From Candidatus Adlerbacteria bacterium (GTDB taxonomy: Bacteria > Patescibacteriota > Minisyncoccia > Phycocordibacterales > SBAW01): a stretch of 64,000 bases of DNA. The notes beneath the pieces are model-generated. The model had not been told where the DNA came from. It saw only the letters and a list, made by a program, of their open reading frames with translations, and ran no database searches. This document shows, piece after piece, positions 1-57,506 of the stretch. Location: the NCBI GenBank assembly GCA_029288895.1, contig JARIGK010000001.1, positions 65,446 through 129,445 of the forward strand, given 5' to 3'. Position 1 is the first letter of the stretch. Every line of letters begins with the position of its first letter. A program made the translations under genes and the position numbers.

Positions 1-1
1 A

Positions 2-2761
2 ACTGCAACAACTTCAATCAACGGTGTATTGACCCAAGGTACAGGCTCAACACAAACAATCTTCCGTAACGGTAACCAGTACATTGGCGCTTCAAGCTTC
101 TTTAACCTCTCATATATTGGTAACCCGCTAACAGAAGGAAGTGGCTACCATGCAAGCGTGTTTAACAACTCGGTTGGTAACCGCGGCGAAGTATTGCAGC
201 TTGGCGGTGCGATGGGATCAAACACTGGCGTCGGTAACTTTATCGGTGCACTCTCGTTCGTAAACTCAAATTCAAGCGGCGGTAACCCTGGCCAGACCGC
301 AACAATCTACGGCTTTAACGACACAGCAGCAAACAACGGTGCGATGGCCTTCTTTACGCAAAATACAAGCGGCACTGCAACAGAAGCAATGCGCATCAAC
401 AGCAGCCAGCAGGTTGGCATTGGCACCACAACGCCTGCGGCGGCACTTGATGTGCGTGGTTCAGGCGGTAACGTTGGCATATTCGAAGCTGACGGCACTG
501 CAACCAACCCGACCCAATTACAGATCCGCGGCGTATCAAATTACAACAAAGTTTTCCAGATCGGCTACAACACAACAAATAGTTACGGTTCGCTCCAGGC
601 GCAAACGGTTGGCTCCACCTTTGACCCAATCGCCCTCAACCCATTGGGCGGCAACGTTGGTATTGGTACAACGACGCCAGGCTCTCCGTTAACTGTGTCT
701 GGTGCTGGCCTTGTCAGTACGTTTTACAATACAAACACGAGTAGTGATCAGCCGGTGCGTATGCTCCAACCAAGCCTTTCTACAGGTAATTCCACATCGC
801 TCGATATTGGTACTGCATGGAATTCAAATTACAACTCCGGTCAATTGCAGTTCACTAACGCGGGAGGTACGGGTAGTCAGTCCAATTATATTGGATTGGG
901 AGTATGGGGACAGACAAATGGTCTTATTGTGAACGGCTTCGGCAATGTTGGTATCGGTACTACATCGCCTGTTGCGACACTTGGCATGACGGGCAGCATC
1001 GGCGTTAACTCGACGCAGCTCTCTATTAATGCAAACGGTAGCGTTGGCGTAGGTACAAATACAACAAATGCGAAATTTACTATCAACGGAACCGGCGGCA
1101 ATGCATCGCACGGCGAGTTGGAAATTTCGAACACAGCCGTTACTTCGAACCTCGGCATCATAGGTATCGAAACAGGAAATAACTCATTGGCAAACGGCGG
1201 CACCTTGGGCGATCTCTCTATCATATCGGCCGGAAGCCTCATTTTGCAGGCGGGCGGCGGGGGAACGGTAAAGTTTAATAACACATCGACGGGGCAGGCT
1301 CAATTCTTCGGCTGGTCACAGCTCGACACCGACCCTAGAAGCGGCGCGATATTCGTAGGCAGCAACTCAGGATTCCGCGGAGTAATCCAATACGGTGCCA
1401 ACCCTTCAAGTTCGCTTTCTATCGACAATACCTACGACTCATCTACGGGTATTGGTATCCAATTTAGAACTCGCACCTCCGGCACCTCAACGACAACTGC
1501 AATGGCTATTCTCAACAATGGCAACATCGGTGTCGGTACAACAAACCCTGGACAGAAATTAACGGTGGCGGGCGCTGACAACTCGGCAACAGTTTCTATT
1601 GGTTTGTTCCGCAGTTCGCTTGATTATGGCCTGCTGCTGTCGACTGTCGGTAGTACAGGCAATTCAAGCATTGTTGCCTCGGGCAGCGGTTCAAGTTTGA
1701 CTCTTGGTGCAAGCGGGACCTCACCTTTTGTAATAGCTTCAAACGGCAACGTCGGTATTGGTAGTACGTCGCCTTCGCGAATAATGTCTATCCAGTCTGC
1801 AGTGTCGACTGCGCAGATGACGGTTGCATACGACACATCGCGCTACACCGACTTCCTCACAAACTCTGTGGGCGACCTTACGATCACGCCGCAGGGCCAA
1901 GACATCTTCAGCAACGACAGCAACCTCTGGATCTGTTCTGGCGGCTCGTGCCCAAGCGGTACGCCAACTGGCACCGGTAACATCATTGTCGAAAACAACA
2001 TCGGTATTGGTACTACGACGCCGAAGTATCGTCTCACTATTGAATCGCAAAACAACACTGACAACCTCTTCCAGATTGCGTCGTCGACAAACCAGAGTAT
2101 CGTCGTTGTAAACGCAAACGGCCGTGTCGGTATCGGCACCTCGACTCCAAGCCAGCAGTTCTCGGTTGCAGACCGCCTCTTCGTTGGCGCAGGCGGTGCG
2201 TCGGGTATGGGTACTGCAACGTCGACCTTCCAAGGCGACATCAAGATCACCGGTAAGCTCGACGTCGGCACCATCGACCCTGTGTACACCATCGACGGCG
2301 TGAAGTACGCAACCTACGGCCACTCGACTGTGGGCCTCAAAGAAGAAGCTGTCGCCGTACTTGAGGTGACAGATAAAAATCCAAAGACCGGCAAGTACGA
2401 AAAGAAAATCTCATTCAAAGATTTGGACAAAGGAAGCGACCTCTGGCTCTTCTACCAAGTCACTGACTTTGGTGATAATTGGAAGAACCTTGTCATCAAC
2501 CTGACGGCGTCGTTCGACGGCTCGGTCTTCTATACCAAGGTGCCGAACGAGGCAGCGGTTGTCGTTTCGGCAGACCAGCCTGGCGAAGTCTCGGCGCGCT
2601 TTATCGCAAACCGCTTCGACTCCGACAAGTGGCCGAATATTCGCCCAGACCAAAACGGGCCGTATAAGGGCCATGAGCTCCAAACTACGCCGACAGGGCA
2701 GGCAACTGCCGTGGGCAGCATAATGCCAATTCGTGCCGATGCCTTTGATCCGGCACAGTAG
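2..2761 (+). CDS. 5'-partial giant extracellular repeat protein with about 40-aa periodic G-N-V-G-I-G-T-T-x-P repeats (tail-fibre-like or beta-helical surface protein). The reading frame is open to the window edge.
   Basis: More than 15 copies of GNVGIGTTTP / GSVGVGTNTT / NIGVGTTNP / RVGIGTSTP motifs at regular spacing. Gly/Asn/Ser/Thr-rich with no Cys until the C-terminus. No stop between position 2 and the annotated TTG at 29. Confidence 0.6.
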   Translation, partial: TATTSINGVLTQGTGSTQTIFRNGNQYIGASSFFNLSYIGNPLTEGSGYHASVFNNSVGNRGEVLQLGGAMGSNTGVGNFIGALSFVNSNSSGGNPGQTATIYGFNDTAANNGAMAFFTQNTSGTATEAMRINSSQQVGIGTTTPAAALDVRGSGGNVGIFEADGTATNPTQLQIRGVSNYNKVFQIGYNTTNSYGSLQAQTVGSTFDPIALNPLGGNVGIGTTTPGSPLTVSGAGLVSTFYNTNTSSDQPVRMLQPSLSTGNSTSLDIGTAWNSNYNSGQLQFTNAGGTGSQSNYIGLGVWGQTNGLIVNGFGNVGIGTTSPVATLGMTGSIGVNSTQLSINANGSVGVGTNTTNAKFTINGTGGNASHGELEISNTAVTSNLGIIGIETGNNSLANGGTLGDLSIISAGSLILQAGGGGTVKFNNTSTGQAQFFGWSQLDTDPRSGAIFVGSNSGFRGVIQYGANPSSSLSIDNTYDSSTGIGIQFRTRTSGTSTTTAMAILNNGNIGVGTTNPGQKLTVAGADNSATVSIGLFRSSLDYGLLLSTVGSTGNSSIVASGSGSSLTLGASGTSPFVIASNGNVGIGSTSPSRIMSIQSAVSTAQMTVAYDTSRYTDFLTNSVGDLTITPQGQDIFSNDSNLWICSGGSCPSGTPTGTGNIIVENNIGIGTTTPKYRLTIESQNNTDNLFQIASSTNQSIVVVNANGRVGIGTSTPSQQFSVADRLFVGAGGASGMGTATSTFQGDIKITGKLDVGTIDPVYTIDGVKYATYGHSTVGLKEEAVAVLEVTDKNPKTGKYEKKISFKDLDKGSDLWLFYQVTDFGDNWKNLVINLTASFDGSVFYTKVPNEAAVVVSADQPGEVSARFIANRFDSDKWPNIRPDQNGPYKGHELQTTPTGQATAVGSIMPIRADAFDPAQ

Positions 2762-2781
2762 GGAGGAGTATACTAACCACT

Positions 2782-2973
2782 ATGAGACGCGTGCTCGCAT
2801 TACTCACCCCATTGTCGCTTGTAGGCATACTGAGTTTCTACGGAATCTCGTGGCTCCATGCGGCGCCAGAGCCAACGATGTGCGCAGTTACAGACCATAC
2901 TGCTTCTGCAACGGTCCCACAGGCACACACAGACGAGAGAGTTTATTTTGTTGGGTGCGGCGGGCTTTTCTAA
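2782..2973 (+). CDS. 63-aa exported or membrane-anchored small peptide (cassette 1 peptide). Hydrophobic N-terminus, conserved C-terminus ...ERVYFVGCGGLF.
   Basis: The palindromic -10 box AGTATACT lies 7 nt upstream of the ATG. The stop overlaps the next ATG (TAATG). A paralogous peptide at 14802 has the same C-terminal motif. Confidence 0.6.
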   Translation: MRRVLALLTPLSLVGILSFYGISWLHAAPEPTMCAVTDHTASATVPQAHTDERVYFVGCGGLF

Positions 2974-3422
2974 TGAGCACCAAAGACCCACGGGATTGGC
3001 GGATTGTGCCCACTGTATATAAGGAGGGGGAGTACGCAGCGCCTATTGCACGTTTTGAACGGAGCGATTTTGTATGGGAAAAACTCGGCGCAACACTCGA
3101 TGCGCACCGCCCACACGGGCTCGGTATTATGCTTTCGTTTGCATGGCAGCTCCATACGTATGCATATAACGAAGCAAACAAACGAGGTGTGGTGACTGCG
3201 GTTGCCATGCCCACCAACGTAAGCGCCTTGTCGGGGCTTATGAAATCAGTGCCTATTGATGCAGTGCTGACAACAGACGAAGGTGCGCGCGCGTTTATGG
3301 ACGATCTGCGCGAGGTAGGTATGCTCGAGCGCATCAAGGTATGGATTATCGTTTCACCCAAAGATGCGCCTAGCTCATTCACCGCACCCGTCGGTGTCAC
3401 CGTGCATGACATACTCCCATGA
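2973..3422 (+). CDS. About 150-aa protein of unknown function (cassette 1 middle gene). It is translationally coupled to the peptide upstream and the ligase downstream.
   Basis: ATG overlaps the peptide stop (TAATG). Its stop overlaps the ligase start (ATGA). About 40% identical to the 15012..15335 product (GLGI[ML]L, VxAVA[ML]P[TS]x[VI]SAL[ST]GL and IKxW[IF]IV motifs). Confidence 0.6.
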   Translation: MSTKDPRDWRIVPTVYKEGEYAAPIARFERSDFVWEKLGATLDAHRPHGLGIMLSFAWQLHTYAYNEANKRGVVTAVAMPTNVSALSGLMKSVPIDAVLTTDEGARAFMDDLREVGMLERIKVWIIVSPKDAPSSFTAPVGVTVHDILP

Positions 3423-4702
3423 ATAATCAACACGCACTTCTTCAAACAGCGCTCGACTTCGCGCTCCGAAATCCGCACTCTGATTTTTATCGTCGGAAGT
3501 TTGGCGCATCGTGGGAACAGTATTTTGGCAAGCCAATAGAAGACATTCCATTTCTGGTGCGAAAAGAAATTGATGATGCGCCGATATTTGAACGGACGTT
3601 TGTACCGCGCGAGATGGTGCGTTTTATCCGCTCGACGTCAGGCTCGAGCGGGAAACATGTGATCGGGTTCCCGATGCTTGAAGAAGGGTTGTATCAAGAA
3701 TTTTTGCGTTCTATCGGGTATACGCATACACCGGGGCAGCTCTCGCGTTACTTCGAACCATACTTTACGCAGATGAATATACGCTCGATGCTGCTCTTTT
3801 CCGCTGGCGCGTTTGTGCATGAGGCTCGCGTGCGAGACATGGAAGGAAGGCAGTGTATCGCTGGAGAATTTTCGCAACCCAAACTTACGGCACAGCTCGG
3901 TACCGAAGCCGCTGTGGATGCAATTGTCGGCAACCCAAGCGGGCTGGTCGATTTTGCTCCGCATATGCGTGCTGCCGGGGGCCATACAGGCGTCCGCCTT
4001 ATTATCTCGGTTGGTGAGCGCCCCACGGCACTCCAGTTTGAAACACTCGAGACTTCGTTCCCGAATGCAAAAATTGCATTGCAGTATGGCCTTACAGAAT
4101 CGCAAGGATATGTTGGCTATACCTGTCCAGAAAAACTAAGCGTCGACCCCAAAGCGCTGCACTTGGCAGAGGGGACCCTCTTTATGGAACTTATCGACCC
4201 GGATACCGAAGCGGTATTGCCGCTCCAGCCTGGCACCGAAGGCGAGGTGGTTATAACTACGCACGAACCGCAAGGATTCCCACTTATACGCTATCGGACC
4301 GGAGATTTTGCACGCATTCGCGAAGAGTCCTGTAGCTGTACGGGGAGCCCCTTGTTGTTTGAATGTATGGGGAGGCTCGAGCTTGATCGCGTGCGCGTCC
4401 CCAAAGGCATGCTCACGATTGCAGCAATTGAGCATGCAATTTTTGGGTTTGGCGGCGTTCGCGAATTTGAAGCGAAGTGGAATACAGACGGTGGCCTGCC
4501 TCGATTGGAGATTTCTTTATATATGGAACACCGATACGCTGCAGAACATGTTATGGCCGATGAGCTTGCGTCGCGCATCCGTATTGCGCCCACAGTAACC
4601 TACAAAACAATAGTGGACGAAGGTCGCGCACTGCCACTGTCCGTAACGATACTGCCTCCCGAACAGTGGGTCGGCTGGAAAAAGAAAAAGCGATTGCGTT
4701 AG
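3419..4702 (+). CDS. PaaK / coenzyme F390 synthetase / CapK-like adenylate-forming enzyme (ANL superfamily). Cassette 1 ligase.
   Basis: P-loop-like RSTSGSSGKHV near residue 70, a YRTGD hinge motif and a C-terminal subdomain of about 100 aa. Total length 427 aa, typical of phenylacetate-CoA ligase-like enzymes. Confidence 0.75.
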   Translation: MNNQHALLQTALDFALRNPHSDFYRRKFGASWEQYFGKPIEDIPFLVRKEIDDAPIFERTFVPREMVRFIRSTSGSSGKHVIGFPMLEEGLYQEFLRSIGYTHTPGQLSRYFEPYFTQMNIRSMLLFSAGAFVHEARVRDMEGRQCIAGEFSQPKLTAQLGTEAAVDAIVGNPSGLVDFAPHMRAAGGHTGVRLIISVGERPTALQFETLETSFPNAKIALQYGLTESQGYVGYTCPEKLSVDPKALHLAEGTLFMELIDPDTEAVLPLQPGTEGEVVITTHEPQGFPLIRYRTGDFARIREESCSCTGSPLLFECMGRLELDRVRVPKGMLTIAAIEHAIFGFGGVREFEAKWNTDGGLPRLEISLYMEHRYAAEHVMADELASRIRIAPTVTYKTIVDEGRALPLSVTILPPEQWVGWKKKKRLR

Positions 4703-5151
4703 TTCGTAAGGGGGAGTAGGTCGCCTGCAACAACGGTGTTTGCCTCAAGGCGGCTGCGCTCGAGCGAATTGGTAAATTGAATATAGATCTGTTCGCCTAT
4801 TTGAAACCCTGTTTGTTCAAGCGGCTCTACTGATACGTTAGCAATGACGCCGTCTGCTCCTGGAGTTCCATGGATGCGTGACATGGTTGCGTTCGGGGCG
4901 AGCCATATTTTTGCTGTTGCTGTTCGCCCCATGCCAGCATCATACGAAATGATCATCCACCCCGCATCGGTATTATTTTGAAGCAGCGTTGCAGATCGTC
5001 TCGTGTCTTTTATGACGCCCACTACGTTTGCTTTCGCTCTTTGAAGGTTTGGGTCTTTTGTTGCGTTGGCCTGCATAACATTGAGCGTGATGCTGCCAGC
5101 AAGCAATGCGCTCAATGCAAACAAGAAGGGCGCTGTACTTTTCTGGGTCAT
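4699..5151 (-). CDS. Secreted hypothetical protein (150 aa) with a signal peptide.
   Basis: Hydrophobic N-terminus (MTQKSTAPFLFALSALLAGSITLNVMQA). Convergent with the ligase, with a 4-nt overlap. Confidence 0.45.
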   Translation of the reverse strand: MTQKSTAPFLFALSALLAGSITLNVMQANATKDPNLQRAKANVVGVIKDTRRSATLLQNNTDAGWMIISYDAGMGRTATAKIWLAPNATMSRIHGTPGADGVIANVSVEPLEQTGFQIGEQIYIQFTNSLERSRLEANTVVAGDLLPLTN

Positions 5152-5157
5152 AGGTAG

Positions 5158-5586
5158 TTACTGAGTTGGCGATATAAATATAATCATAGCGTATGGAGTA
5201 GTATTGTTCGGGCTAAGCCACACGGTAGTGCGTATTCGCAGCCCGCTTTTTATTGTTTTTGCTGTGTCCGTTTGGAGCAGCCGCGAATCGACAATTAGTC
5301 CTTGCTCGTCTTGTGTAATAGTACGTACAAGCATGGCCGTGTCATTGTCGTAGTGGATGAGAATCGTGCGCGACACCCGGCCGGGGTACGGGTCTTCTTT
5401 CAGGAGAAATGAATCAGAGGATACCCGAGTAACAGTGCCACTGAGCGATAGCGACATACTGTGTTGCAATGTAAGTGCCGCTGCGGCGCTGCTGTTGTCG
5501 GGCAAGACTAATATCCCCATTGTTGAAGCAACAATAGCTCCAACACAGACGCCAAAGACGATCGCCAATGCTGAAGAAACATTCAT
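5158..5586 (-). CDS. Exported or membrane-anchored hypothetical protein (142 aa).
   Basis: N-terminal TM/signal segment. A TATACT -10 box lies 6 nt upstream of its ATG, on the minus strand at 5593-5598. Confidence 0.45.
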   Translation of the reverse strand: MNVSSALAIVFGVCVGAIVASTMGILVLPDNSSAAAALTLQHSMSLSLSGTVTRVSSDSFLLKEDPYPGRVSRTILIHYDNDTAMLVRTITQDEQGLIVDSRLLQTDTAKTIKSGLRIRTTVWLSPNNTTPYAMIIFISPTQ

Positions 5587-5634
5587 CCGTCCAGTATAGC
5601 GCGCATAGAGAAACCTTTCGCGTATACTATATAT

Positions 5635-7089
5635 ATGCGTATAGTTCGCACGTTTCTGCCAGCACTGGCGCTCGTCCTTGTGTGCGTGGTTTACATGCTA
5701 TTGCCGTTAGCAACACAAGACGCAGGAGGCGCCCTCCTTTCATGTGCTGCTATAGGTGTCGTGTTGTTGGCCATACTGGCGTGGGGGTATGTGCCTAGCC
5801 CTCGCCACTGGCATGTATCCCAATGGCTGCTTGTGGCATGTATAGGTTCGGTTTTTGTATCTGTGCTTCTGTCAAAAAATTACGCCCATGCGTTATGGGG
5901 ATTTTCGTTCGACATGACATCCGCGTTCTTCCTTTTGTTTGTATTCGTACTCCCACTTATTGTGGGTGGGCTTCCGGTCCATGTGCGGAGAATTATTTTT
6001 TTGGCGTCTTGTGTATCGCTTGCATTGCTCTTGATATATCCGCTCGTGCGCTCGGAAGTGTATGTCCGCCCGTCGAACGATGCCACAATGGGAATTGAAG
6101 CTGCCTCGTATGCAGATGGCGGGACGCGTGCACTCCTTGTTGGTGTAGGGCCCAACTCATTTTTGTATGCCTGGCAAAAATACAGGCCAACTGCGGTACT
6201 CACAACGCCATTTTGGAATGAAGATTTTCCTGTAGGTGGTAGTGTGCTCGCAACACTCATGATCGAATGTGGCGTACTGAGTGTCTTGCTCTTGTGTCTC
6301 GCATACTTGTCTGCGTGTGCAGAGGAAGTATGGAGAAGTCTCACAGAGGAATATTCGATCATTAGAAAAAGTTTGTATACGTTGCCTGCGTGGATCGTTC
6401 TTGGCTCTTTGTTTGCTCTTATGTTTGCGGAGCCGTCGGCGCCGCTGGTGTTGGTGTGTGGAATGCTTCTTGGGTCATTTCGCTTTCATACAGAGCCACG
6501 GATTGTACTCGGCCCATGGACTCGCGGCGCAGGTGTTGTAGTGGGTGTTGCATACCTGTGCGTTGTGGCCTATATAGCAACCGCTGTTATATTTTATTTT
6601 TCTGCGTTCTCAAAAGTGCAAGCGCAAGATCTGACTTCGGCGCAACACACAGGAGAATATTCCTATCAGCTCTATAAAAATCCACAGACTGCACGATTTC
6701 TTTCGCAGACCTTCCGTTCGCTTGGTCATGAACTTGGGCGGACGCACGTAGGGCAGGACACAATCCAAGCTTCCTTCCATGCTGCGAGCGCATATGCCCG
6801 TGCAGCAACGGTGCAAGAACCACAGAATGGCCAAAATTGGAAATTGCTTGGTATCAGTCTCGCAGAAGAATTAGCGCTGCAAAAAAATGCCGCCTTTTTT
6901 AGTGAAGGTAAAAAAGCTTTTGATACAGCAGCGGTGCGTATTCCTGCTGACCCATCAATTTTCTTTTTCGAAGCCCAGCTATATATCTTGGCAGGGGACA
7001 GAGAGGGTGCAAAGTCCTTGCTTGATAAAGCGCTTGCTTTGAAGCCTGACTATACCGAAGCAAACGATCTGCGTACGGCCATACAGTAG
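5635..7089 (+). CDS. Polytopic membrane protein, O-antigen ligase/Wzy-like, with a C-terminal TPR-like region.
   Basis: At least 10 predicted TM helices followed by a soluble C-terminal helical-repeat region (KALALKPDYTEAND). A TATACT box lies 6 nt upstream of the ATG. Confidence 0.45.
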   Translation: MRIVRTFLPALALVLVCVVYMLLPLATQDAGGALLSCAAIGVVLLAILAWGYVPSPRHWHVSQWLLVACIGSVFVSVLLSKNYAHALWGFSFDMTSAFFLLFVFVLPLIVGGLPVHVRRIIFLASCVSLALLLIYPLVRSEVYVRPSNDATMGIEAASYADGGTRALLVGVGPNSFLYAWQKYRPTAVLTTPFWNEDFPVGGSVLATLMIECGVLSVLLLCLAYLSACAEEVWRSLTEEYSIIRKSLYTLPAWIVLGSLFALMFAEPSAPLVLVCGMLLGSFRFHTEPRIVLGPWTRGAGVVVGVAYLCVVAYIATAVIFYFSAFSKVQAQDLTSAQHTGEYSYQLYKNPQTARFLSQTFRSLGHELGRTHVGQDTIQASFHAASAYARAATVQEPQNGQNWKLLGISLAEELALQKNAAFFSEGKKAFDTAAVRIPADPSIFFFEAQLYILAGDREGAKSLLDKALALKPDYTEANDLRTAIQ

Positions 7090-7098
7090 GGCACTACT

Positions 7099-8643
7099 AT
7101 GAGAACAGCAGAACATCGAACGCTCTACGTCCGTATTTTTTTGAGCGCCATCTGTCTTGGTGTGTGTCTGTTGAGCGCACGAAATTATACTTCCACGCTG
7201 CCGCTTGGATATAACGTCGTACTTATAAGCATTGATAGTCTGCGCACCGATCATATGAGTTTGTACGGATATGAACGTCCGACAACCCCCACTATCGATG
7301 CGTATGCAAAGGGCGCGGCTGTATTCGACAACTATTTTTCGACGAGCATGATAACCCCGATAAGCGAGATGAGCGTACAAACAGGCACGTACCCATTTAC
7401 GAGCGGCCTCATCAATTTTGAATCCATTCTTTCTCCTAAAGTCGAAACTCTAGCCGAAGTGCTCCATGCACATGGATGGAAGACAGCGTCGTTTGGCTCT
7501 TCGGTCGAGTTCGACCTTCCGGTTTCGAAAATCGATTTCTCCAGAGGGTTTGATGCGTATGTTGGTAATGTCAATCTAAAAGAAAAACCATTGCCGTGGT
7601 TTGGGCGCAACGATTCGCATATAGATGAAGCGCTTGCGTGGGCGAGAAACGCATCATATGGCACGCAGCCGTTCTTTCTGTGGCTACGTATCGGCTCGGC
7701 TCATTGGCCGTATGGGTATGATGAACCTGCGCACGTTACGGACCCGGCCTACGATGGGCCGATGAAAGCAGACATGTCATCCCCTACAGAGCAGGAGATG
7801 ATATCTATGTTTAGCCAACGGTACGGCACTATTTGGAACGGCCGCGAGTATGGAGTGAATGCCGGCCGCAGTAGTGCAGGTGTGCAAGAAGATATTTCAT
7901 ATATTACTGATAGATATGACGATGGCATTATCAAAACAGATCGTGAGCTAGCGCCGCTTCTGGCGTTTCTTTCGCAAACGTATATCGCCGACAGAACGAT
8001 TGTCATTATTGAGTCCGAACACGGAGAAGGGTTAGGGGAAAGGGGATACGTAGCGCATTACGACATATCAGATGATGAAACTCATGTTCCACTTATTATC
8101 AAAGCACCCTTGCTGCGCCCACAAAACGTACAAGATTTGATTTCTGGCGTTGATGTATTCCCCACACTTATGGCCGCACTTCATCTTCCGCAGAAAAAAG
8201 TGGACGGGATAAATTTCCTCCCGCGGCTGTCGGGTGCATCAAGCACTACTCCACGCGGTGAGATATTTTTGACGCGCACGCCGCTGTGGGAGCGAATCTT
8301 GAGTACGGAGGTGCCGTGGCTTTTGCCGCTCGTACCCAAAGACAACGCTGCCAACTATCACGATACGGCACTACGAACAGATGAATGGAAGCTTGTGCAT
8401 CGCACTGCGCGCCAGGCAGAAGAGCAATACTCGTGGTACGGGCACATGAGCGGTGTGCCTGTCGTGCGCCCAGAGTACGAGCTGTACCACATGCCCACTG
8501 ACCCGCACGAGACTATGAATGTGTATGCAGAGTACCCACAGATCGCAGAGGCTCTCAAAGAAAAACTGCTTTCGTGGGAACGTATAACAGAGGGGCGTAG
8601 TACTATACAAATGAAACCAGGAAGCCTTCAGCCGTATTTTTAA
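7099..8643 (+). CDS. Alkaline-phosphatase-superfamily ('sulfatase-like') membrane-anchored enzyme with a Thr nucleophile motif. Likely a phosphodiesterase or phosphotransferase acting on an envelope polymer.
   Basis: N-terminal metal-binding motif ISIDSLRTDHMSLYGY. Nucleophile region ITPISEMSVQTGTYP resembles the NPP/EptA-type T-x-P...TG-x-YP motif, not the sulfatase C/S-x-P-x-R motif. Confidence 0.6.
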   Translation: MRTAEHRTLYVRIFLSAICLGVCLLSARNYTSTLPLGYNVVLISIDSLRTDHMSLYGYERPTTPTIDAYAKGAAVFDNYFSTSMITPISEMSVQTGTYPFTSGLINFESILSPKVETLAEVLHAHGWKTASFGSSVEFDLPVSKIDFSRGFDAYVGNVNLKEKPLPWFGRNDSHIDEALAWARNASYGTQPFFLWLRIGSAHWPYGYDEPAHVTDPAYDGPMKADMSSPTEQEMISMFSQRYGTIWNGREYGVNAGRSSAGVQEDISYITDRYDDGIIKTDRELAPLLAFLSQTYIADRTIVIIESEHGEGLGERGYVAHYDISDDETHVPLIIKAPLLRPQNVQDLISGVDVFPTLMAALHLPQKKVDGINFLPRLSGASSTTPRGEIFLTRTPLWERILSTEVPWLLPLVPKDNAANYHDTALRTDEWKLVHRTARQAEEQYSWYGHMSGVPVVRPEYELYHMPTDPHETMNVYAEYPQIAEALKEKLLSWERITEGRSTIQMKPGSLQPYF

Positions 8644-8648
8644 GTACT

Positions 8649-10091
8649 ATGAATCTCACGAAATTTTTCTCGACGCGGTCCGGTATACAAGTGTTAGTTG
8701 CGGTTGGTCTGTGTGTACTTGTAGGTTTTTTTATTTTTCTGGGAGAGCATAGATCTGCGTCGTCTGGCCCATCGTTTGGAGTTTGTCGCGGGTGCAACGT
8801 CCTTATCATAGGCGTTGATACACTCCGTGCTGACCGTTTGCATGTCTTTGGCTATAGCCGAAATACGACACCAACCATTGATGCCCTTGCCGCAAAAGGG
8901 TACGCCTTTTCAAATGCAATAGCGCCAGCAAGTTGGACTGTCCCTTCGTTTATGTCTATTTTTACGGGCACGTACCCTTCGGTGCATGGTGTTACAAATA
9001 AGTTTATTTCGTTTTCACAAGACCAAAAGCAACTTTCAAATTTGAAAATAACGGCTCCGCAAATCCAAACGCTTGCAGAAGTGCTCAAAGCAGAAGGCTA
9101 TGCAACGGGTGGCTTTACTGGAGACGCGGGCGTGTCGGGAAAGTTTGGATATAACCTTGGGTTTGATGCGTATACCGATGAGAAAGCGTTTGGAGGCTTA
9201 GAAAACAGCAAGAGCCACGCGTTAGCGTGGGCAGATCAGCTCGGCGACAAACATTTCTTTATGTTTTTCCACGGCTACGATTTGCATGGGCAATCGGCTC
9301 CGTCTGCTACAAACCCGTTTCTAGACTCTACGTATCACGGGCCCTACACCGGTAGTCCTCAAGAAGAATCAGTGTTGCGCGAGGGCGTGTTGACGCCCAA
9401 AGGCATCACGCTGACTCCGCAAGATGCGAAGTTTTGGAGCGATACGTATGACGGCAAAGTTGTACAGGCAGACAAAGAATTACAAACATTTTTGACAGAC
9501 ATGTCCGTGCGCGGATTGCTTAAGAACACACTCATCGTGTTGGTGTCAGACCATGGAGAGGAGTTTTATGAACACAAAGGGTTTGACCACGGACATACGC
9601 TCTATGACGAACTCGTACACGTCCCGCTTATCTTCGTTGTCCCAGGGATGCAGGGAGGCCAGATAATCAAGAGCCAAGTCAGTACCATGGATGTTATGCC
9701 GACCATCCTCTATCTCCTTGGGATTACCCCGCGCGGAGAGCTGTCCAATCAGTTGTCAGGCAGAGCGAATCTGGCATCGTACTTTACTGCCACATCAACG
9801 AAAGGGTATGACGTTTTTTCGGAAACTAACTACCGCGGGTACACCTATAAAAGGAGCGTGCGCACAGCGGATGGATGGAAGTATATTTTGACCCTCGAAA
9901 CCGGGAAAGAAGAACTATATAACCTCACTGTCGACAAAGGAGAGCATACGAATCTTGTTTTGACAGACGCAGATAAGGCAGAACAATTACGTGTTGAATT
10001 AAGGAATCATCTCGAGCAGGATCTACACTACGATATGTCGAAAACGCCAGCCGTTACATGCCTCCCTGTATATGACGGGGAATGTAAGTAA
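8649..10091 (+). CDS. Paralogous alkaline-phosphatase-superfamily enzyme with a Thr nucleophile motif, membrane-anchored.
   Basis: IIGVDTLRADRLHVFGY and SWTVPSFMSIFTGTYP motifs. It lies 6 nt after the previous paralog. Confidence 0.6.
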   Translation: MNLTKFFSTRSGIQVLVAVGLCVLVGFFIFLGEHRSASSGPSFGVCRGCNVLIIGVDTLRADRLHVFGYSRNTTPTIDALAAKGYAFSNAIAPASWTVPSFMSIFTGTYPSVHGVTNKFISFSQDQKQLSNLKITAPQIQTLAEVLKAEGYATGGFTGDAGVSGKFGYNLGFDAYTDEKAFGGLENSKSHALAWADQLGDKHFFMFFHGYDLHGQSAPSATNPFLDSTYHGPYTGSPQEESVLREGVLTPKGITLTPQDAKFWSDTYDGKVVQADKELQTFLTDMSVRGLLKNTLIVLVSDHGEEFYEHKGFDHGHTLYDELVHVPLIFVVPGMQGGQIIKSQVSTMDVMPTILYLLGITPRGELSNQLSGRANLASYFTATSTKGYDVFSETNYRGYTYKRSVRTADGWKYILTLETGKEELYNLTVDKGEHTNLVLTDADKAEQLRVELRNHLEQDLHYDMSKTPAVTCLPVYDGECK

Positions 10092-10148
10092 TCAAGAGCG
10101 TTTACAGGGCTCTTTGTGGCAGCTCCGGGTATACGGTATTCTTCTAGT

Positions 10149-10745
10149 ATGAGTACTCGTCCCATTCCTCGTCTTGTAGTCGGAGGAATACTGATGTGCC
10201 TTATATTTGCTCTCGCTCTTCAGGGTGGCGAGGCGTCTGCTGCAACACTTACGTCTCCGGTGACAGTGACAGGTAGTATTAGCGTGCTCGGCACGCTCTC
10301 CAAAGGTTCTGGTACATTCGTCATTGACCATCCGCTCGACCCTGCGAACGAATTGCTGTACCACTCCTTCGTCGAATCACCAGATGTAAAAAACCTCTAC
10401 GACGGCATCGCCACACTCGACAGCAAGGGGGAAGCGACAATTGTGTTGCCAGATTATTTTCTTGCACTCAATAAAGATTTTCGATATTTAGCAACACCCA
10501 TTGGCGCTCCTATGCCTACCTTGCATTTGGGCAAAGAGGTGGGCAAGCGCTGGTTTAATCTCTTTGGGGCAATACAATTTAAAATAACGGGTGGTGTGCC
10601 GGGCGGCCGCGTCTCATGGCAAGTCACGGGCATCCGCCACGACAAATTTATCGAGGACAATCCTATCCAGGTTGAAGTAGAAAAGACTGACGACACACTG
10701 GTAAAGAAGGGTGAATATCTTTTCCCTGAATTCTATGGACACTAA
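10149..10745 (+). CDS. Secreted protein with a conserved 'GSGTFVIDxPxDPANxLLYHSFVESPDVKN' domain (paralog 1 of 3).
   Basis: Signal/TM segment followed by the core KGSGTFVIDHPLDPANELLYHSFVESPDVKNLYDGIATLDSKGEATIVLPDYF, which is nearly identical in the next two genes. Confidence 0.55.
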   Translation: MSTRPIPRLVVGGILMCLIFALALQGGEASAATLTSPVTVTGSISVLGTLSKGSGTFVIDHPLDPANELLYHSFVESPDVKNLYDGIATLDSKGEATIVLPDYFLALNKDFRYLATPIGAPMPTLHLGKEVGKRWFNLFGAIQFKITGGVPGGRVSWQVTGIRHDKFIEDNPIQVEVEKTDDTLVKKGEYLFPEFYGH

Positions 10746-11292
10746 ACGAAACACTCTAAGAATTGGTGTAAGTATGTTAATACTGGCGATTCCCGTGCTC
10801 GCGTCTGCTGTCACCCTCACTGGAAACATACAATTTAAAGGAAATTTGGCGATAACAGGGGCGCTCTCGAAAGGCTCCGGCACCTTCGTCATCGATGATC
10901 CCATTGACCCTGCTAACAAACTGCTCTATCACTCGTTCGTCGAGTCGCCAGATGTAAAAAACATCTACGACGGCATCGCAACACTCGACAGCAAAGGGGA
11001 GGCAACTATTGTGCTGCCAGATTATTTCGATGCGTTGAACAAGGATTTTCGGTATGAATTTTTCCCGCTCGATAAGGCCGATCCAGGGCTCTATATAAAA
11101 ACTGGCGCCGACGTTGTGAAGAATCAATTTACGATTGCGGGCGGGACGCCAGGCGACCGCGTTTCGTGGCAAATCACTGGCATCCGCCACGACCCGTACA
11201 TTCTTGCGAACCCGGTTGTGGTAGAGGTTCCGAAAACCAACGATACTATTGTAAAAAAAGGCCAGTATCTATTTGAGGGGTATGAAAAATAA
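10735..11292 (+). CDS. Secreted conserved-domain protein (paralog 2 of 3).
   Basis: Same core domain with more than 85% identity over about 70 aa. The start is uncertain; either ATG 10735 or ATG 10774. Confidence 0.5.
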   Translation: MDTKRNTLRIGVSMLILAIPVLASAVTLTGNIQFKGNLAITGALSKGSGTFVIDDPIDPANKLLYHSFVESPDVKNIYDGIATLDSKGEATIVLPDYFDALNKDFRYEFFPLDKADPGLYIKTGADVVKNQFTIAGGTPGDRVSWQITGIRHDPYILANPVVVEVPKTNDTIVKKGQYLFEGYEK

Positions 11293-11986
11293 GACGATAT
11301 ATTTTTTTGCGCTTGCTTCACTTATATGTATGCCCATGGTGTGCGTGCACGCCTACGCTGAAGGCGGATATTACGGCCAAGGATATTATGAAGGGTATTA
11401 CCAAAGCTATTATCAGCCGTACTATCAGCCGTACTATCAGCCAACGTATCAAACGGTATTTACAAAAAATGCTGCTGCAAGCAAGACGGTGGCGGTTACG
11501 GGTAGCGTATCAAAAAGCTCCGGTACCTTCGTCATTGATGACCCAATCGACCCCGCTAACAAATTGCTTTACCACTCGTTCGTCGAGTCGCCTGACGTCA
11601 AAAACATCTACGATGGCATCGCAACACTCGACAGCAAGGGGGAAGCGACAATTGTGTTGCCCGATTATTTCGATGCGTTGAACAAGGATTTTAGATATCT
11701 GACGCGCCCAATTGGCGCCCCTATGCCAAACCTCTACATCAAAGATGAAGTGCACGACAACACATTTAGTATCGGTGGCGGGAGCCCTGGTGGACGTGTC
11801 TCATGGCAAGTCACTGGGATTCGCCACGATGCGTATATCGTTGCACACCCTATTGTCCCGGTGGTGGATAAAAGCAAAGACACAATCGTCGACCGTGGGA
11901 GCTATATCTATCCTGCAGGATTCACTTCATTTGGGAGTACATTCTTTGGATCTCTCTCGACGTTTTTTAATGCTATTTTCCACTAG
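11282..11986 (+). CDS. Secreted conserved-domain protein (paralog 3 of 3) with an N-terminal Tyr/Gln-rich low-complexity stretch.
   Basis: GGYYGQGYYEGYYQSYYQPYYQPYYQPTYQ followed by the same core domain. Confidence 0.5.
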   Translation: MKNKTIYFFALASLICMPMVCVHAYAEGGYYGQGYYEGYYQSYYQPYYQPYYQPTYQTVFTKNAAASKTVAVTGSVSKSSGTFVIDDPIDPANKLLYHSFVESPDVKNIYDGIATLDSKGEATIVLPDYFDALNKDFRYLTRPIGAPMPNLYIKDEVHDNTFSIGGGSPGGRVSWQVTGIRHDAYIVAHPIVPVVDKSKDTIVDRGSYIYPAGFTSFGSTFFGSLSTFFNAIFH

Positions 11987-11989
11987 CGC

Positions 11990-13177: not shown

Positions 13178-13183
13178 AGCCCG

Positions 13184-14779: not shown

Positions 14780-14801
14780 CAGAGACAGTATACTTTACTG
14801 C

Positions 14802-15002
14802 ATGAAGAGGAGATTCGCCCTCATACCACTATTTCTCCTTTCAGCCCTTGCTGTGGGAATGCTTTCTTCAAAAAGAGATGCAGCACTGAGCTGTGTCGAG
14901 CCTGGGGTGGGCGCATCTGCTCCGAACATGTCGAATTCTTCGTCGGTACAAGCAGAAGAGTCAGATCGAGTCTACAATATTTGGTGCGGAGGCGTTTTCT
15001 AA
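14802..15002 (+). CDS. 66-aa exported or membrane-anchored small peptide (cassette 2 peptide). C-terminus ...DRVYNIWCGGVF.
   Basis: Paralog of the 2782..2973 peptide. AGTATACT lies 7 nt upstream of the ATG. Confidence 0.6.
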   Translation: MKRRFALIPLFLLSALAVGMLSSKRDAALSCVEPGVGASAPNMSNSSSVQAEESDRVYNIWCGGVF

Positions 15003-15011
15003 AACGACGGT

Positions 15012-15335
15012 ATGGATGATGCACATAGGACGTCCGCGTGGCCCGCACTCGGGCGCATGCTTGATGATATCCAACCCAAAGGCCTTGGCATTTTGTTGCC
15101 CCCGATACTTCAACTCCATCGACCTGCATATCTTGAAGCGCGTGCGCGCACTATTGTAGTCGCTGTTGCGCTTCCGTCGCAGATTTCCGCACTTACTGGT
15201 CTGGTTGAAGAAGCTTCGATCGAAGCTGTTATAGCAACACAAGGAGCGGCGAATGAATTTGCTGCCGATTTGGAGCGAGTAGGGCTTACAACAAATATAA
15301 AAGCCTGGTTTATTGTCGACGAAAAACCACTATGA
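15012..15335 (+). CDS. 107-aa protein of unknown function (cassette 2 middle gene), paralog of 2973..3422.
   Basis: About 40% identity to the cassette 1 middle gene. Its stop overlaps the ligase start. Confidence 0.55.
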   Translation: MDDAHRTSAWPALGRMLDDIQPKGLGILLPPILQLHRPAYLEARARTIVVAVALPSQISALTGLVEEASIEAVIATQGAANEFAADLERVGLTTNIKAWFIVDEKPL

Positions 15336-18246: not shown

Positions 18247-18269
18247 GCGCTTCAAGTATACTAAATACC

Positions 18270-19517: not shown

Positions 19518-19527
19518 TATAGCCCAC

Positions 19528-23340: not shown

Positions 23341-23367
23341 TTACAAAGCGTTTATACTAGAGAGAAT

Positions 23368-25132: not shown

Positions 25133-25151
25133 ATGGAGCTAGAATAGAGAC

Positions 25152-25820
25152 ATGATAGAAATCATTCCGGCAGTCTTGCCAAAGAATTTTACAGAACTTC
25201 AAGATGGGCTCGAGAAAGTGGTCGGCGTTGCGCCATTGGTGCAAATCGATTTGGTCGGGAATAAAAATATTTTAGAGGGCCACGATGAAATGCCGCTGTG
25301 GCAAGAGTTTAATTTTGAGTTTGACATTATGCTGCCCGACCCAGCTCGTGAAGTCGCTCGCTGCATCGATATGGGCGCCTCGCGCATTGTGGTACATGCG
25401 TCTGCAAAAACTTCCCGCGAAGCGCTCGAGAGTATGCAACACCTGCGTGGCGGCGAGTACCCCGTAGTGCTTGGGTTGGCATTGGCGGCTCATGATACAC
25501 CCGAGGCGCTCGTACCTTTCCAGGGTTTGTATGACTACGTGCAGGTGATGGGTATCGACACTATTGGTGTGCAAGGCCAGCCGCCAGACCCGCATCATAA
25601 AGAGTTAGAGCTGCTGCGTGCATTGCGCGAGTTGCATCCAAATTTGCCGTTGTCTGTTGATGGTGGCGTGGCAGCGCACCCACGCGAGCTTGTCGATGCT
25701 GGCGCCACAACGCTCATTGTTGGTTCGGCCATTGTGTTGGCAGACGACCCGCGTACTGCATACAAAGCGATATATACTAAAGTGAATGGCTCTCACGCAG
25801 AAGACAATACAAACGCTTGA
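25152..25820 (+). CDS. rpe: Ribulose-phosphate 3-epimerase (divergent).
   Basis: C-terminal LSVDGGV...LIVGSAI motif and (beta/alpha)8-barrel-like pattern. Sits between rpiB and tkt. Confidence 0.7.
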   Translation: MIEIIPAVLPKNFTELQDGLEKVVGVAPLVQIDLVGNKNILEGHDEMPLWQEFNFEFDIMLPDPAREVARCIDMGASRIVVHASAKTSREALESMQHLRGGEYPVVLGLALAAHDTPEALVPFQGLYDYVQVMGIDTIGVQGQPPDPHHKELELLRALRELHPNLPLSVDGGVAAHPRELVDAGATTLIVGSAIVLADDPRTAYKAIYTKVNGSHAEDNTNA

Positions 25821-28093: not shown

Positions 28094-28110
28094 TCTATAC
28101 TGAAACGACC

Positions 28111-29307: not shown

Positions 29308-29320
29308 GCACAAAGTATAT

Positions 29321-29355
29321 CGCAAAAGAAAAGCCCCACTCGGTAGTGGGGCTTT
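29321..29355 (-). terminator. Rho-independent terminator on the minus strand (10-bp stem AAGCCCCACT/AGTGGGGCTT followed by a T-run).
   Basis: Perfect inverted repeat followed by TTCTTTTG on the minus strand, directly after small ORF 29360..29554. Confidence 0.6.
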
Positions 29356-29359
29356 GATG

Positions 29360-29554: not shown

Positions 29555-29628
29555 GTACGTGTCCTCCTGTAATTTTTATATCATTAAATTAGTTTCTGTC
29601 AACTGGAACAGTGTGTCGTATAATAGAA

Positions 29629-35552: not shown

Positions 35553-35649
35553 TTCGCCTTTTAAAACCACACGCCGCCTTAGGGCCGACGCTTCGGTCGG
35601 CCTCCCGACCCGCAAAGCGGCGTCGGGACTCAGTTGGTAGAATATATGT

Positions 35650-38554: not shown

Positions 38555-38583
38555 ATAGACGAGTATACGGTATACTGCCCTGT

Positions 38584-54502: not shown

Positions 54503-54510
54503 AGTATACT
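54503..54510. promoter_or_regulatory. Palindromic AGTATACT -10-like element shared by divergent dnaE and rnhB. Each start codon is 6 nt away, implying leaderless mRNAs.
   Basis: The dnaE ATG ends at 54496. The rnhB GTG is at 54517. The same palindrome recurs at 2767, 14787 and 18255. Confidence 0.55.
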
Positions 54511-55101: not shown

Positions 55102-55130
55102 TATTTGGACCTTTTTGGTATGGTGGGGCC

Positions 55131-57450: not shown

Positions 57451-57506
57451 TGTTTAAGCTCCGCGACATGCGTCGCGGAGCTTTTTCTTTGCTACAATGT
57501 GAGGCA

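Follow-up and report, generated by a model that had tools for sequence, protein, structure and literature searches.

The eight-base palindrome AGTATACT, present four times in the window (the whole stretch of 64,000 nucleotides that was analysed), is read here, with a probability of roughly 0.85, as two overlapping, opposite-strand -10 hexamers TATACT that drive predicted leaderless, bidirectional transcription. It is the strongest form of the organism's sigma-70-type -10 element, (G)TATACT. This reading as leaderless, bidirectional promoters is well supported; the leaderless status we infer from geometry alone, as the -10 box of many genes lies only 6 to 9 bases before the start codon and their mRNAs should therefore begin at the start codon.

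Palindromic boxes and the genes that they face

The four palindromes and their flanking genes are arranged as follows.

2767..2774, plus strand: AGTATACT; TATACT at 2769-2774, 7 nt (2775-2781) before ATG 2782
2782-2973, plus strand: gene for a 63-aa peptide, served by the palindrome at 2767; -35-like TTGATC at 2745-2750
14787..14794, both strands: AGTATACT common to two divergent genes, 23 bp from start to start
14789-14794, plus strand: TATACT, 7 nt before ATG 14802 (66-aa peptide)
14787-14792, minus strand: TATACT, 7 nt before ATG 14779 (531-aa protein, 13184-14779)
18255..18262, both strands: AGTATACT common to two divergent genes, 24 bp from start to start
18257-18262, plus strand: TATACT, 7 nt before GTG 18270 (415 aa); -35-like TTGAGT at 18233-18238
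18255-18260, minus strand: TATACT, 8 nt before ATG 18246 (543 aa)
54503..54510, both strands: AGTATACT common to dnaE and rnhB, 21 bp from start to start; dnaE ATG 54496 (minus strand, spacer 6 nt) and rnhB GTG 54517 (plus strand, spacer 6 nt)

The initial annotation had placed a perfect palindrome before these start codons, and on re-reading of the sequence all the distances that it gave were right. The palindrome reads as TATACT on both strands, with the two hexamers overlapping by 4 bp (TATA). Start codons lie 6–8 nt away on both sides of three of the four copies, and seven of the eight sides face one (binomial P of about 2e-7, by arithmetic from a chance rate of 8.2%, the frequency with which a random position has the start codon of an ORF of at least 60 aa 5–9 nt further on). 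The eighth side belongs to the palindrome at 2767, which faces a start codon in one direction only. The overlap geometry predicts 21 bp between divergent starts, and the three bidirectional sites have 21, 23 and 24 bp. In the dnaE/rnhB pair both hexamers stand exactly at -12..-7 (+1 being the first base of the start codon), because the start-to-start distance is 21 bp.

Four copies compare with 0.30 expected, a 13-fold over-representation, and none of 100 dinucleotide-preserving shuffles contained four. The shorter motifs are also in excess, with 26 copies of TATACT against 11.4 expected and 20 of GTATAC against 6.3, and the shuffles never attained the observed counts of any of the three sequences. 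Avoidance of GTATAC as a restriction site was considered and rejected, the site being enriched three-fold.

By reading and scanning, a -35 element is recognisable in only two of the seven used directions, the plus directions at 2767 and 18255; most of the compact bidirectional sites have no recognisable -35. A scan of positions 1–20000 with a generic sigma-70 consensus gave 14 matches against 20 expected, with no overall enrichment. It caught the sites at 2767 and 18255, and such a scan is uninformative for promoters relying on the -10 box alone.

The gene pairs at 14787 and 18255 are assigned from ORF structure, and the 14802 peptide also from a paralogue alignment: the peptides from 2782 and 14802 are paralogous and align from M1. 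No homologues of the genes flanking these two palindromes were found in the related loci.

Non-palindromic boxes

Other genes of the window carry separate, non-overlapping or single boxes.

5593..5628, both strands: intergenic region of 48 bp between divergent genes, with two separate -10 boxes; 49 bp from start to start
5593-5598, minus strand: TATACT, 6 nt before ATG 5586
5622-5628, plus strand: GTATACT, 6 nt before ATG 5635
23353..23358, plus strand: TATACT, 9 nt before GAPDH ATG 23368
25140..25145, plus strand: TAGAAT, 6 nt before ATG 25152 (ribulose-phosphate epimerase-like; Pfam-anchored start)
25773..25778, plus strand: TATACT, 7 nt before ATG 25786 (transketolase N-terminal subunit)
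28096..28101, plus strand: TATACT, 9 nt before start 28111 of a 63-aa ORF (28111-28302)
29314..29319, minus strand: TATACT, 6 nt before the ATG 29307 of a pfkB-family kinase
29619..29624, plus strand: TATAAT, 7 nt before class II aldolase ATG 29632
35638..35643, plus strand: TAGAAT, 6 nt before ATG 35650 (86-aa GIY-YIG protein)
38562..38576, both strands: intergenic region of 29 bp between GT2 and pheS, with back-to-back boxes AGTATAC-g-GTATACT
38562-38567, minus strand: TATACT, 7 nt before GT2 ATG 38554
38571-38576, plus strand: TATACT, 7 nt before pheS ATG 38584
55119..55124, plus strand: TATGGT, 6 nt before ATG 55131 (ribosomal protein bL32; Pfam-anchored start)
57493..57498, plus strand: TACAAT, 8 nt before ATG 57507 (SMC)

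The GT2/pheS region, correctly described in the initial annotation as a 29-bp intergenic region, reads CAT(38552-38554)-atagacg-AGTATAC-g-GTATACT-gccctgt-ATG(38584). The GT2 ORF is over-long; its NCBIfam GT2 matches start at about residue 114, in keeping with a start codon at 38554. N-terminal anchoring to Pfam or NCBIfam profiles supports the starts of dnaE, rnhB, GAPDH, the epimerase, transketolase-N, bL25, the GIY-YIG protein, bL32, SMC and the aldolase. In GAPDH, position 2 of the Pfam Gp_dh_N profile coincides with residue 4; for the start at 57507, position 2 of SMC_N falls on residue 3, and for the start at 35650 profile position 1 is residue 1 of the GIY-YIG protein.

Two of the boxes lie close to or within an upstream gene. 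The hexamer at 28096 begins 3 nt past the stop codon of the preceding gene, while the box at 25773..25778 would be an internal promoter within the 3' end of the gene upstream. On the minus strand before pfkB, a terminator-like hairpin (29329-29357) is followed by the -10 box about 9 nt on.

The claim that further genes have boxes 6–9 nt before their starts stood for the most part. The aldolase begins at ATG 29632 and not at 29629 (TATAAT, spacer 7), and the elements given for 19528 (TATAGC, spacer 4) and 48499 (TATAAA) are weak and do not have the invariant final T. A -10 box is absent before the housekeeping genes for S2, EF-Ts, NusB, S16 and one aaRS, and that of gyrB is off-register, with a spacer of 10.

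Identity of the hexamer and scarcity of Shine-Dalgarno sequences

Unsupervised motif discovery by expectation-maximisation (EM) on 126 homology-anchored upstream regions of dnaE and rnhB, from about 75 related species, returned a hexamer with T at 0.94, A at 0.93, T at 0.74, A at 0.90, A or C, and T at 0.97, with the extended consensus tGG-TAtA[A/C]T. It begins at -12 in 59 of the 126 regions (47%), for a modal spacer of 6 nt, and between -13 and -16 in 44 more. Positions 1, 2 and 6 (T1, A2, T6) are near-invariant, and positions 3–5 vary (TATACT, TATAAT, TAGAAT, TACACT, TACAAT). A -35 signal is visible as a peak of TTG exactly 23 nt upstream of the start of the hexamer, equivalent to a 17-bp spacer (12/88 and 24/209, against about 1–4 at other positions). 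An extended -10 is also present, with T at -15, G at -14 and G at -13 enriched. T at -1, considered as part of a pyrimidine(-1)/purine(+1) signature of the transcription start site (TSS), was discarded; it is equally common before operon-internal genes that have no -10 box.

The window has 0.09 Shine-Dalgarno (SD) 4-mers per gene, no more than background; an E. coli control gave 0.63 per gene, and in it the same pipeline detected SD sequences and no -10 peak. The earlier statement that very few genes have an SD sequence is borne out by this level, and the two exceptions that it named do carry one, AGGAG ahead of 45257 and GGAGGA ahead of 29554, a 64-aa ORF on the minus strand. EM on the upstream regions of 301 genes without a -10 box revealed no alternative ribosome-binding motif, with at most 0.3 bit per position and no positional preference. 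The sequence upstream of operon-internal genes is A-rich (43–50% A at -6..-3). The 3' end of 16S rRNA was not found in the window or in the 80 related loci; a tRNA-Thr is the only match of the Rfam/tRNA scan in the window, and the Rfam scan found no rRNA there.

The motif might in principle act in RNA, with UAUACU or UAUAAU at -12..-7 being part of a longer 5' leader and working there as a ribosome-binding site of a non-SD type or as an enhancer of translation; its partner might be an altered 16S rRNA 3' tail, in a lineage that no longer has the CCUCC anti-SD. A substitute signal could be expected where SD sequences are absent and the anti-SD has been lost in part of the Parcubacteria (PMC9297842), and a distance of 6–9 nt from the start codon also suits a ribosome-binding site. 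The conservation, however, is like that of sigma-factor recognition, with near-invariant T1, A2 and T6 and variable positions between, and unlike that of base pairing, and neither the TTG exactly 17 bp upstream nor the extended -10 TG has a role in an RNA element. The hexamer does precede some tightly coupled co-directional genes (17–26% have a -10-like hexamer, and these could be internal promoters or errors of naive start calling), but most operon-internal genes are without it and no motif was found upstream of them. The pfkB box, moreover, lies directly downstream of its terminator-like hairpin. An element acting in RNA is therefore considered quite improbable.

Divergent promoters in related species

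The window organism is an ultra-small CPR bacterium (Paceibacteria, Adlerbacteria-like). In most of the approximately 75 related species the -10 box 6–8 nt before the dnaE ATG is kept, and the flanks diverge. The spacer between rnhB and dnaE ranges from 19 to 118 bp among the species; each gene keeps a box about 5–10 nt from its own start, and the two boxes merge into a single palindrome once the spacer shrinks to about 21 bp. The dnaE/rnhB arrangement with a shared palindrome is also present in the related loci L001, L013 and L025, and the overlapping opposite-strand -10 arrangement recurs in these three and in L015, L057, L059, L006 and L071. In L057 and L059 a start-to-start spacing of 18 bp is found.

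Distances between divergent genes calculated from naive starts were too noisy, with many negative values from over-extended ORFs, and were replaced by homology-anchored starts for rnhB-dnaE and, for divergent pairs at large, by the requirement of a -10 box on both sides. Among the 53 pairs with a box on both sides, the start-to-start distance is 18–27 bp in 12, 28–37 bp in three and 38–47 bp in one, and the 18–27 bp cluster includes pairs other than dnaE/rnhB. This cluster supports symmetric use of the -10 box by divergent pairs, as the initial annotation had proposed.

That AGTATACT is instead the palindromic operator of a dimeric transcription factor co-regulating divergent pairs, its likeness to a -10 box being incidental, is highly improbable. 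The perfect 8-bp symmetry, the over-representation and the position between divergent genes at three of the four sites would suit an operator. In the orthologous rnhB-dnaE regions, however, conservation is limited to the half-site TATA[A/C]T, and the element splits in two when the spacer lengthens, while the non-palindromic hexamer precedes many unrelated genes at an equal distance. Furthermore, 13 of the 22 copies of AGTATACT in the related loci adjoin no start codon. An operator function may still be overlaid on the promoter.

Position of the hexamer relative to start codons

An enrichment of the hexamer at -13 to -7 had been predicted, and a scan of the window and the 80 related loci located it as a sharp peak of TANNNT at -12, about 10-fold above background, with the region -30..-21 flat. 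When the longest ORF is taken to set the start, a naive choice, TANNNT has its first base at -12 in 8 of 56 genes of the window (0.5 expected), 27 of 260 genes from close relatives (2.5 expected) and 68 of 691 genes from distant relatives (10.5 expected). Starting from the motif, 15 of the 26 TATACT hexamers in the window have the start codon of an ORF of at least 60 aa 5–9 nt downstream (P = 1.5e-10), and the same is true for 10 of the 12 GTATACT heptamers (P = 7e-10). The motif accompanies 3–4.5% of in-frame internal start-like codons, compared with 33–36% of divergent genes.

A compositional or annotation artefact, generated by AT-rich intergenic DNA and freely chosen starts, is already largely refuted and has almost no chance of being correct: naive start calling is error-prone and TANNNT is loose (1235 window copies, with no overall association with start codons), but the peak is sharp, it persists for starts fixed by homology or Pfam, it does not appear in the E. 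coli control and shuffled sequences never reach the observed counts.

Proposed mechanism of leaderless, bidirectional transcription

In the proposed mechanism, RNA polymerase holoenzyme would recognise the hexamer via the A at position 2 and the T at position 6 and melt the DNA, and transcription would start about 7 nt downstream of the hexamer, with +1 on the base that opens the ATG or GTG, or 1–3 nt ahead of it. Initiation at the start codon would therefore produce mRNAs without a 5' leader and without an SD sequence. Ribosomes would bind the 5'-terminal start codon of such leaderless mRNAs directly, and translation of operon-internal genes, which follow the stop codon of the gene before them at 0–10 nt, would rely on coupling or re-initiation. 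The initial annotation had called the mRNAs predominantly leaderless; this appears to hold for operon-first genes (about 70% of the domain-anchored ones) and not for all genes, many operon-internal ones having no signal.

GTATAC is its own reverse complement, so that adding a single A lets the box be read in either direction. Two divergent leaderless genes would in this manner share a single 8-bp element, with only 21–24 bp between their start codons. RNA polymerase would occupy the shared site in one orientation at a time, and both orientations would presumably fire. The model predicts that changing AGTATACT to AGTATACC abolishes the plus transcript only, to GGTATACT the minus transcript only, and to AGTCTACT both.

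Discussion

A wider reading, to which we give about even odds, joins these elements. SD-led initiation would have been abandoned genome-wide, in a lineage plausibly belonging to the Parcubacteria subgroup that is reported to be without the 16S anti-SD and uL1. Operon-first genes would be leaderless, transcribed from start-adjacent -10 boxes, and downstream genes would be coupled or re-initiated with no upstream signal. Under genome compaction, divergent leaderless pairs (the replication genes dnaE and rnhB among them) would have been driven to use one 8-bp palindrome in common, giving complete regulatory regions of about 21 bp in which the orientation of RNA polymerase partitions expression between the two genes.

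The CPR bacteria, or Patescibacteria, represent a large share of bacterial diversity and have unusual, reduced ribosomes; how they start translation is not addressed in the literature that could be searched here. About 75 Paceibacteria species with a canonical -10 box 6–10 nt before their starts and no SD sequence suggest a concrete, testable answer, namely leaderless initiation for operon-first genes and coupling for the others. If true, the joint reading would provide the missing mRNA-side explanation of how CPR ribosomes without an anti-SD choose start codons. Gene-start prediction in CPR metagenome-assembled genomes (MAGs) should use a leaderless-promoter model, as gene finders do for leaderless-transcribing bacteria. 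Such a model would correct many over-extended ORFs, of which the GT2 gene, rnhB and the gene at 18246 are examples in the window. The 21-bp dual-leaderless promoters would also offer compact parts, and a natural setting in which to study competition in bidirectional promoters.

Comparison with known systems

The mechanism is known from Deinococcus-Thermus, from Actinobacteria and from promoters with -10 symmetry, and its presence in CPR bacteria appears to be unreported: the literature searchable here contained no relevant paper that mentions "leaderless" together with CPR, Patescibacteria, Parcubacteria or Saccharibacteria.

Bacteroidetes and Cyanobacteria initiate translation independently of SD sequences using A-rich, unstructured leaders, their mRNAs are mostly leadered, and the Bacteroidetes promoter has a distinct -7 motif. 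The window shares with these phyla the low SD usage and the A-rich sequence before operon-internal genes, and differs from them in that its promoter box lies right next to the start codon.

About half of the Parcubacteria have a 16S rRNA without the anti-SD motif (Tsurumaki et al. 2022, PMC9297842). That study, on the same broad lineage, dealt with rRNA and ribosomal proteins and not with gene upstream regions or promoters; the window, with no SD enrichment, gives the mRNA-side counterpart.

In Deinococcus-Thermus the same architecture has been validated experimentally, and a -10 box alone suffices (Zhong et al. 2025, PMC12340547; de Groot et al. 2014, PMC4007540); the leaderless gene architecture of Actinobacteria was described by Cortes et al. 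2013 (PMC3898074). Both groups resemble the window in several respects: TANNNT lies a few bp before ATG or GTG in at least about 30% of ORFs, the -35 is optional, these genes have no SD sequence and the TSS is predicted to coincide with the start codon. The differences are that the organism belongs to the CPR/Patescibacteria and has a reduced genome, that the preferred hexamer is TATACT following a G, and that SD sequences are at background for essentially all genes, rather than for the leaderless ones only. In Deinococcus-Thermus and Actinobacteria the architecture was validated by dRNA-seq and reporters, whereas here it is predicted from the sequence.

Bidirectional promoters arising from -10 symmetry were established by Warman et al. 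(bioRxiv 10.1101/2020.01.31.928960; follow-up PMC12825309). Like those promoters, the ones described here have overlapping -10 elements on opposite strands and would be used for mRNA production, and binding of RNA polymerase would be mutually exclusive between the orientations. Divergent TSSs of the established bidirectional promoters are 7–25 bp apart. The commonest TSS spacing in the E. coli bidirectional promoters is 18 bp, with A(-11) pairing with T(-7) of the opposite hexamer, while here the overlap consists of the 4-bp TATA, which predicts 21 bp, and the start codons are 21–24 bp apart. Unlike in E. coli, both transcripts are predicted to be leaderless, and the whole intergenic region measures only 20–23 bp.

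Gene content and comparative material

The window has a GC content of about 51%. The genes recognised with NCBIfam and Pfam profiles include:

Replication and chromosome maintenance: dnaE, rnhB, gyrB and SMC
Translation and RNA processing: pheS/pheT, S2, bL25, L31, L32, EF-Ts, a release factor, NusB and RNase III
Central metabolism: class II aldolase, GAPDH and transketolase

S16 was identified by its translated sequence. The DnaE protein is 45–78% identical to that of 80 species-representative genomes labelled Paceibacterota, Adlerbacteria, Kaiserbacteria, Nomurabacteria, Vogelbacteria, Campbellbacteria, Doudnabacteria or Uhrbacteria; 80 loci (1.37 Mb) form the comparative set. On this basis the window is assigned to the chromosome of a CPR/Patescibacteria bacterium in the class Paceibacteria (Parcubacteria). 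The Adlerbacteria/Kaiserbacteria/Campbellbacteria group is taken to match 'OD1-L1' (Brown et al. 2015), a clade without uL1. For several core proteins the length falls below that usual in bacteria: DnaE has 1012 residues (51458–54496), PheT has 603 (39351–41162) and matches its NCBIfam profile only from position 157, and the release factor (32891–33853) begins at position 41 of the PCRF profile. Shortening of this kind fits CPR protein reduction.

Association of the box with start codons

The palindrome AGTATACT, which reads TATACT on both strands, is present in four copies in the window versus 0.30 expected, a number reached by none of the dinucleotide-preserving shuffles. Its distances to start codons, as given in the initial annotation, are all exact when read off the sequence:

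2767: ATG 2782 at 7 nt
14787: ATG 14802 and the minus-strand ATG 14779, each at 7 nt
18255: GTG 18270 at 7 nt, the minus-strand ATG 18246 at 8 nt
54503: the rnhB GTG 54517 and the minus-strand dnaE ATG 54496, each at 6 nt

The 29-bp spacer between pheS and the divergent GT2 gene on the minus strand also contains the two boxes described for it, arranged back to back (CAT-atagacg-AGTATAC-g-GTATACT-gccctgt-ATG). The aldolase ATG, placed at 29629, is located at 29632, and the elements claimed for 19528 and 48499 are weak, lacking the final T. The other 80 loci contain 22 copies of AGTATACT, of which 13 adjoin no start codon; therefore, the 8-mer as such is not a dedicated signal. Restriction-site effects on GTATAC were excluded, this sequence being enriched, not avoided.

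The association between box (a -10-like TANNNT hexamer) and start codon is real, with four independent tests in agreement. A motif-centred test, free of gene calling, scored start codons that are located 5–9 nt downstream and begin an ORF of 60 aa or more. These follow 15 of the 26 TATACT (P = 1.5e-10) and 10 of the 12 GTATACT sequences (P = 7e-10) in the window, with a chance of 8.2% at a random position. In a gene-centred test, starts were deliberately called in a naive way, from the longest ORF; TANNNT then has its first base at -12 in 8 of 56 window genes (0.5 expected), 27 of 260 close-relative genes (2.5 expected) and 68 of 691 distant-relative genes (10.5 expected). The motif precedes 33–36% of divergent genes versus 3–4.5% of in-frame internal ATG, GTG and TTG codons. 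When 50 kb of E. coli K-12 was put through the same pipeline as a negative control, Shine-Dalgarno (SD) 4-mers per gene amounted to 0.63, versus 0.09 in the window, and TANNNT per gene to 0.07, versus 0.34. The amino-termini of dnaE and rnhB are set by homology (MSAKFAHLHV...), not by the analyst; in most of about 75 species GTATACT, GTATAAT or CTATAAT is located 6–8 nt upstream, with unconserved flanks. Pfam amino-terminal matches fix the window starts of GAPDH, epimerase, transketolase-N, bL25, GIY-YIG, bL32 and SMC, and all seven genes have TANNNT at a spacer of 6–9 nt.

Probable promoter identity of the box

An unsupervised EM run on 126 anchored upstream 30-mers (dnaE, rnhB) returned the motif tGG-T(0.94)A(0.93)t(0.74)A(0.90)[A/C]T(0.97), recognisable as the sigma-70 -10 signature, with T1, A2 and T6 nearly invariant and a variable middle. 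Its first base falls at -12 in 59 of these regions and between -13 and -16 in another 44. Upstream of hexamers, T is enriched at -15 and G at both -14 and -13, and TTG is most frequent precisely 23 nt ahead of the first hexamer base (12/88 and 24/209 versus about 1–4 at neighbouring positions), by its position a -35 element separated from the -10 hexamer by 17 bp. Alternatively, the motif could work by RNA-RNA pairing. It would then come without a -35 or an extended -10, but both accompany the box, and it would be expected before operon-internal genes too, but the 301 genes without a -10 box yielded no upstream motif of any kind; both points argue against pairing.

The boxes are thus best read as promoter elements. 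With a 6-nt spacer, +1 would coincide with the start codon's first base, and in the pfkB-family kinase gene the box is wedged between a terminator-like hairpin directly upstream and the ATG 6 nt downstream, leaving no room for a leader. We estimate a probability of about 0.85 that the boxes are functional -10 elements yielding leaderless or near-leaderless mRNAs; statistics and comparative genomics both support this reading, which the initial annotation had proposed.

T at -1 was dropped as a signature of the transcription start site (TSS), since coupled genes lacking a box show it just as often. The base at -1 is T in 55% and G in 11% of cases in the window, and G in 7–10% in related loci; genes without a -10 box behave likewise. 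The context (C)ACTATG recurs directly before the ATGs at 2782, 7099, 8649, 15332, 20611 and 45257, operon-internal genes included, and may serve the initiation or re-initiation of translation rather than mark a TSS.

Probable bidirectional use

The divergent rnhB-dnaE pair is kept in 52 loci, with spacers, based on homology-anchored starts, of 19 bp to more than 3 kb. Spacers of 56–118 bp contain two separate boxes, each about 5–10 nt from its own start, as in the related locus L056 (CAT-gcgcca-AGTATAC...GGTATACT-gactttta-ATG). At 31–32 bp the boxes are back to back and at 19–28 bp they overlap or are fused, the window and the loci L001 and L025 having CAT/CAC-N6-AGTATACT-N6-ATG/GTG, 21 bp from start to start. 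Because each box stays near its own start across spacer lengths, the box tracks the start codon; the palindrome can be described, from this series, as the limiting case of two merged promoters. Among 53 adjacent divergent pairs with a box on both sides, start-to-start distances are 18–27 bp in 12, 28–37 bp in three and 38–47 bp in one. The first group includes genes other than dnaE and rnhB, with two pairs at 18 bp (L057 and L059). The spacer series and this cluster back the symmetric use by divergent pairs claimed at the outset, and the three palindromes between divergent genes probably fire both ways. The GTATAC core is self-complementary because the extended consensus is G-TATAC-T, and one A added upstream would make GTATACT bidirectional.

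Extent and exceptions

TANNNT is present at spacers of 5–10 nt in about 28–30 of the approximately 65 window genes. In the 26 window genes with starts anchored by domain or homology, 14–15 have the box, and six of the 11 without it are operon-internal (at most 10 nt from the preceding stop, or with an ATGA overlap), so roughly 70% of operon-first genes look leaderless. Among the exceptions, S2, EF-Ts, NusB, S16 and an aaRS lack a box, and the TATAAT of gyrB stands 10 nt from its start. The two SD exceptions named initially, 45257 and the small ORF at 29554, are real. Clear SD sequences in the 64 kb number only two, one of them at this ORF. Features around these and other sites are:

29360–29554, minus strand: 64-aa ORF, strong SD GGAGGA 7 nt from its ATG
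29329–29357, minus strand: terminator-like hairpin gccccactaccgagtggggc plus T-run, between the 64-aa ORF and the leaderless-type pfkB promoter
62902–62911: TATACT in odd register, 0–3 nt before GTG/ATG 62908/62911
62487–62492: TATACT in odd register, overlapping the opposite-strand rpsP ATG; the RNase R-like gene starts 73 nt downstream, at 62413
From 35650: 86-aa stand-alone GIY-YIG nuclease-domain gene, leaderless-type TAGAAT box, ending 5 nt before tRNA-Thr(TGT)
35916–35991: tRNA-Thr(TGT), no promoter box of its own nearby

The true start of the gene at 62908/62911 may lie further downstream, the box being too close for a leaderless start, and the tRNA may be co-transcribed with the GIY-YIG gene.

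Other loci in the window

2782–4702 and 14802–16618: two paralogous three-gene cassettes
29–2761: Gly/Thr/Ser/Asn-rich protein of at least 910 aa, running off the window start
10149–10745, 10735/10774–11292 and 11282–11986: tandem gene family
10434–10449 and 11645–11660: identical hairpin-forming 16-mer GCGACAATTGTGTTGC, followed by C[A/C]GATTATTT

Each cassette encodes a peptide (63 and 66 aa) with a signal-like amino-terminus and a conserved carboxy-terminal ...RVY..(G/W)CGG(L/V)F end, a second protein of about 107–136 aa without a Pfam match, and a third (about 427 aa) whose AMP-binding (adenylate-forming) match is weak and below the Pfam cutoff. The peptides are 33% identical end to end, and both their genes have AGTATACT boxes as predicted promoters. 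The cassettes look like a RiPP-like or peptide-modification system. The 910-aa protein, with many GNVGIGTT(S/T)P repeats and neither Pfam nor NCBIfam matches, is probably a surface or fibre protein. The 16-mer is located in two neighbouring genes of the tandem family, which suggests recent duplication.

Comparison with known systems

A full-text search of the accessible literature returned no relevant report of 'leaderless' for CPR, Patescibacteria, Parcubacteria or Saccharibacteria. A domain-wide leaderless survey drew on RefSeq complete genomes, and the accessible part of its supplements contains no Patescibacteria (PMC12340547). According to Tsurumaki et al., just 48% of 16S rRNAs from Parcubacteria have a detectable anti-SD, with an overlap with the group that lacks uL1; mRNA upstream regions were outside the scope of their study (PMC9297842). 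The start-adjacent -10 architecture plausibly explains how CPR ribosomes without an anti-SD find start codons.

As read from the sequence, the architecture (leaderless, -10-only, with symmetric shared boxes) appears to be one known elsewhere, with no prior report found for this phylum. Start-codon-adjacent -10 boxes drive leaderless mRNAs in Deinococcus-Thermus (PMC4007540, PMC12340547) and Actinobacteria (PMC3898074), as determined by dRNA-seq and reporters. That -10 symmetry generates bidirectional promoters is established for E. coli and further bacteria, with a preferred TSS spacing of 18 bp and minor classes of 23, 29 and others (bioRxiv 10.1101/2020.01.31.928960; PMC12825309). Most of the compact sites seen here have no recognisable -35, because its position falls inside the neighbouring coding sequence, and in this they resemble Deinococcus, where the -10 box alone suffices (PMC12340547).
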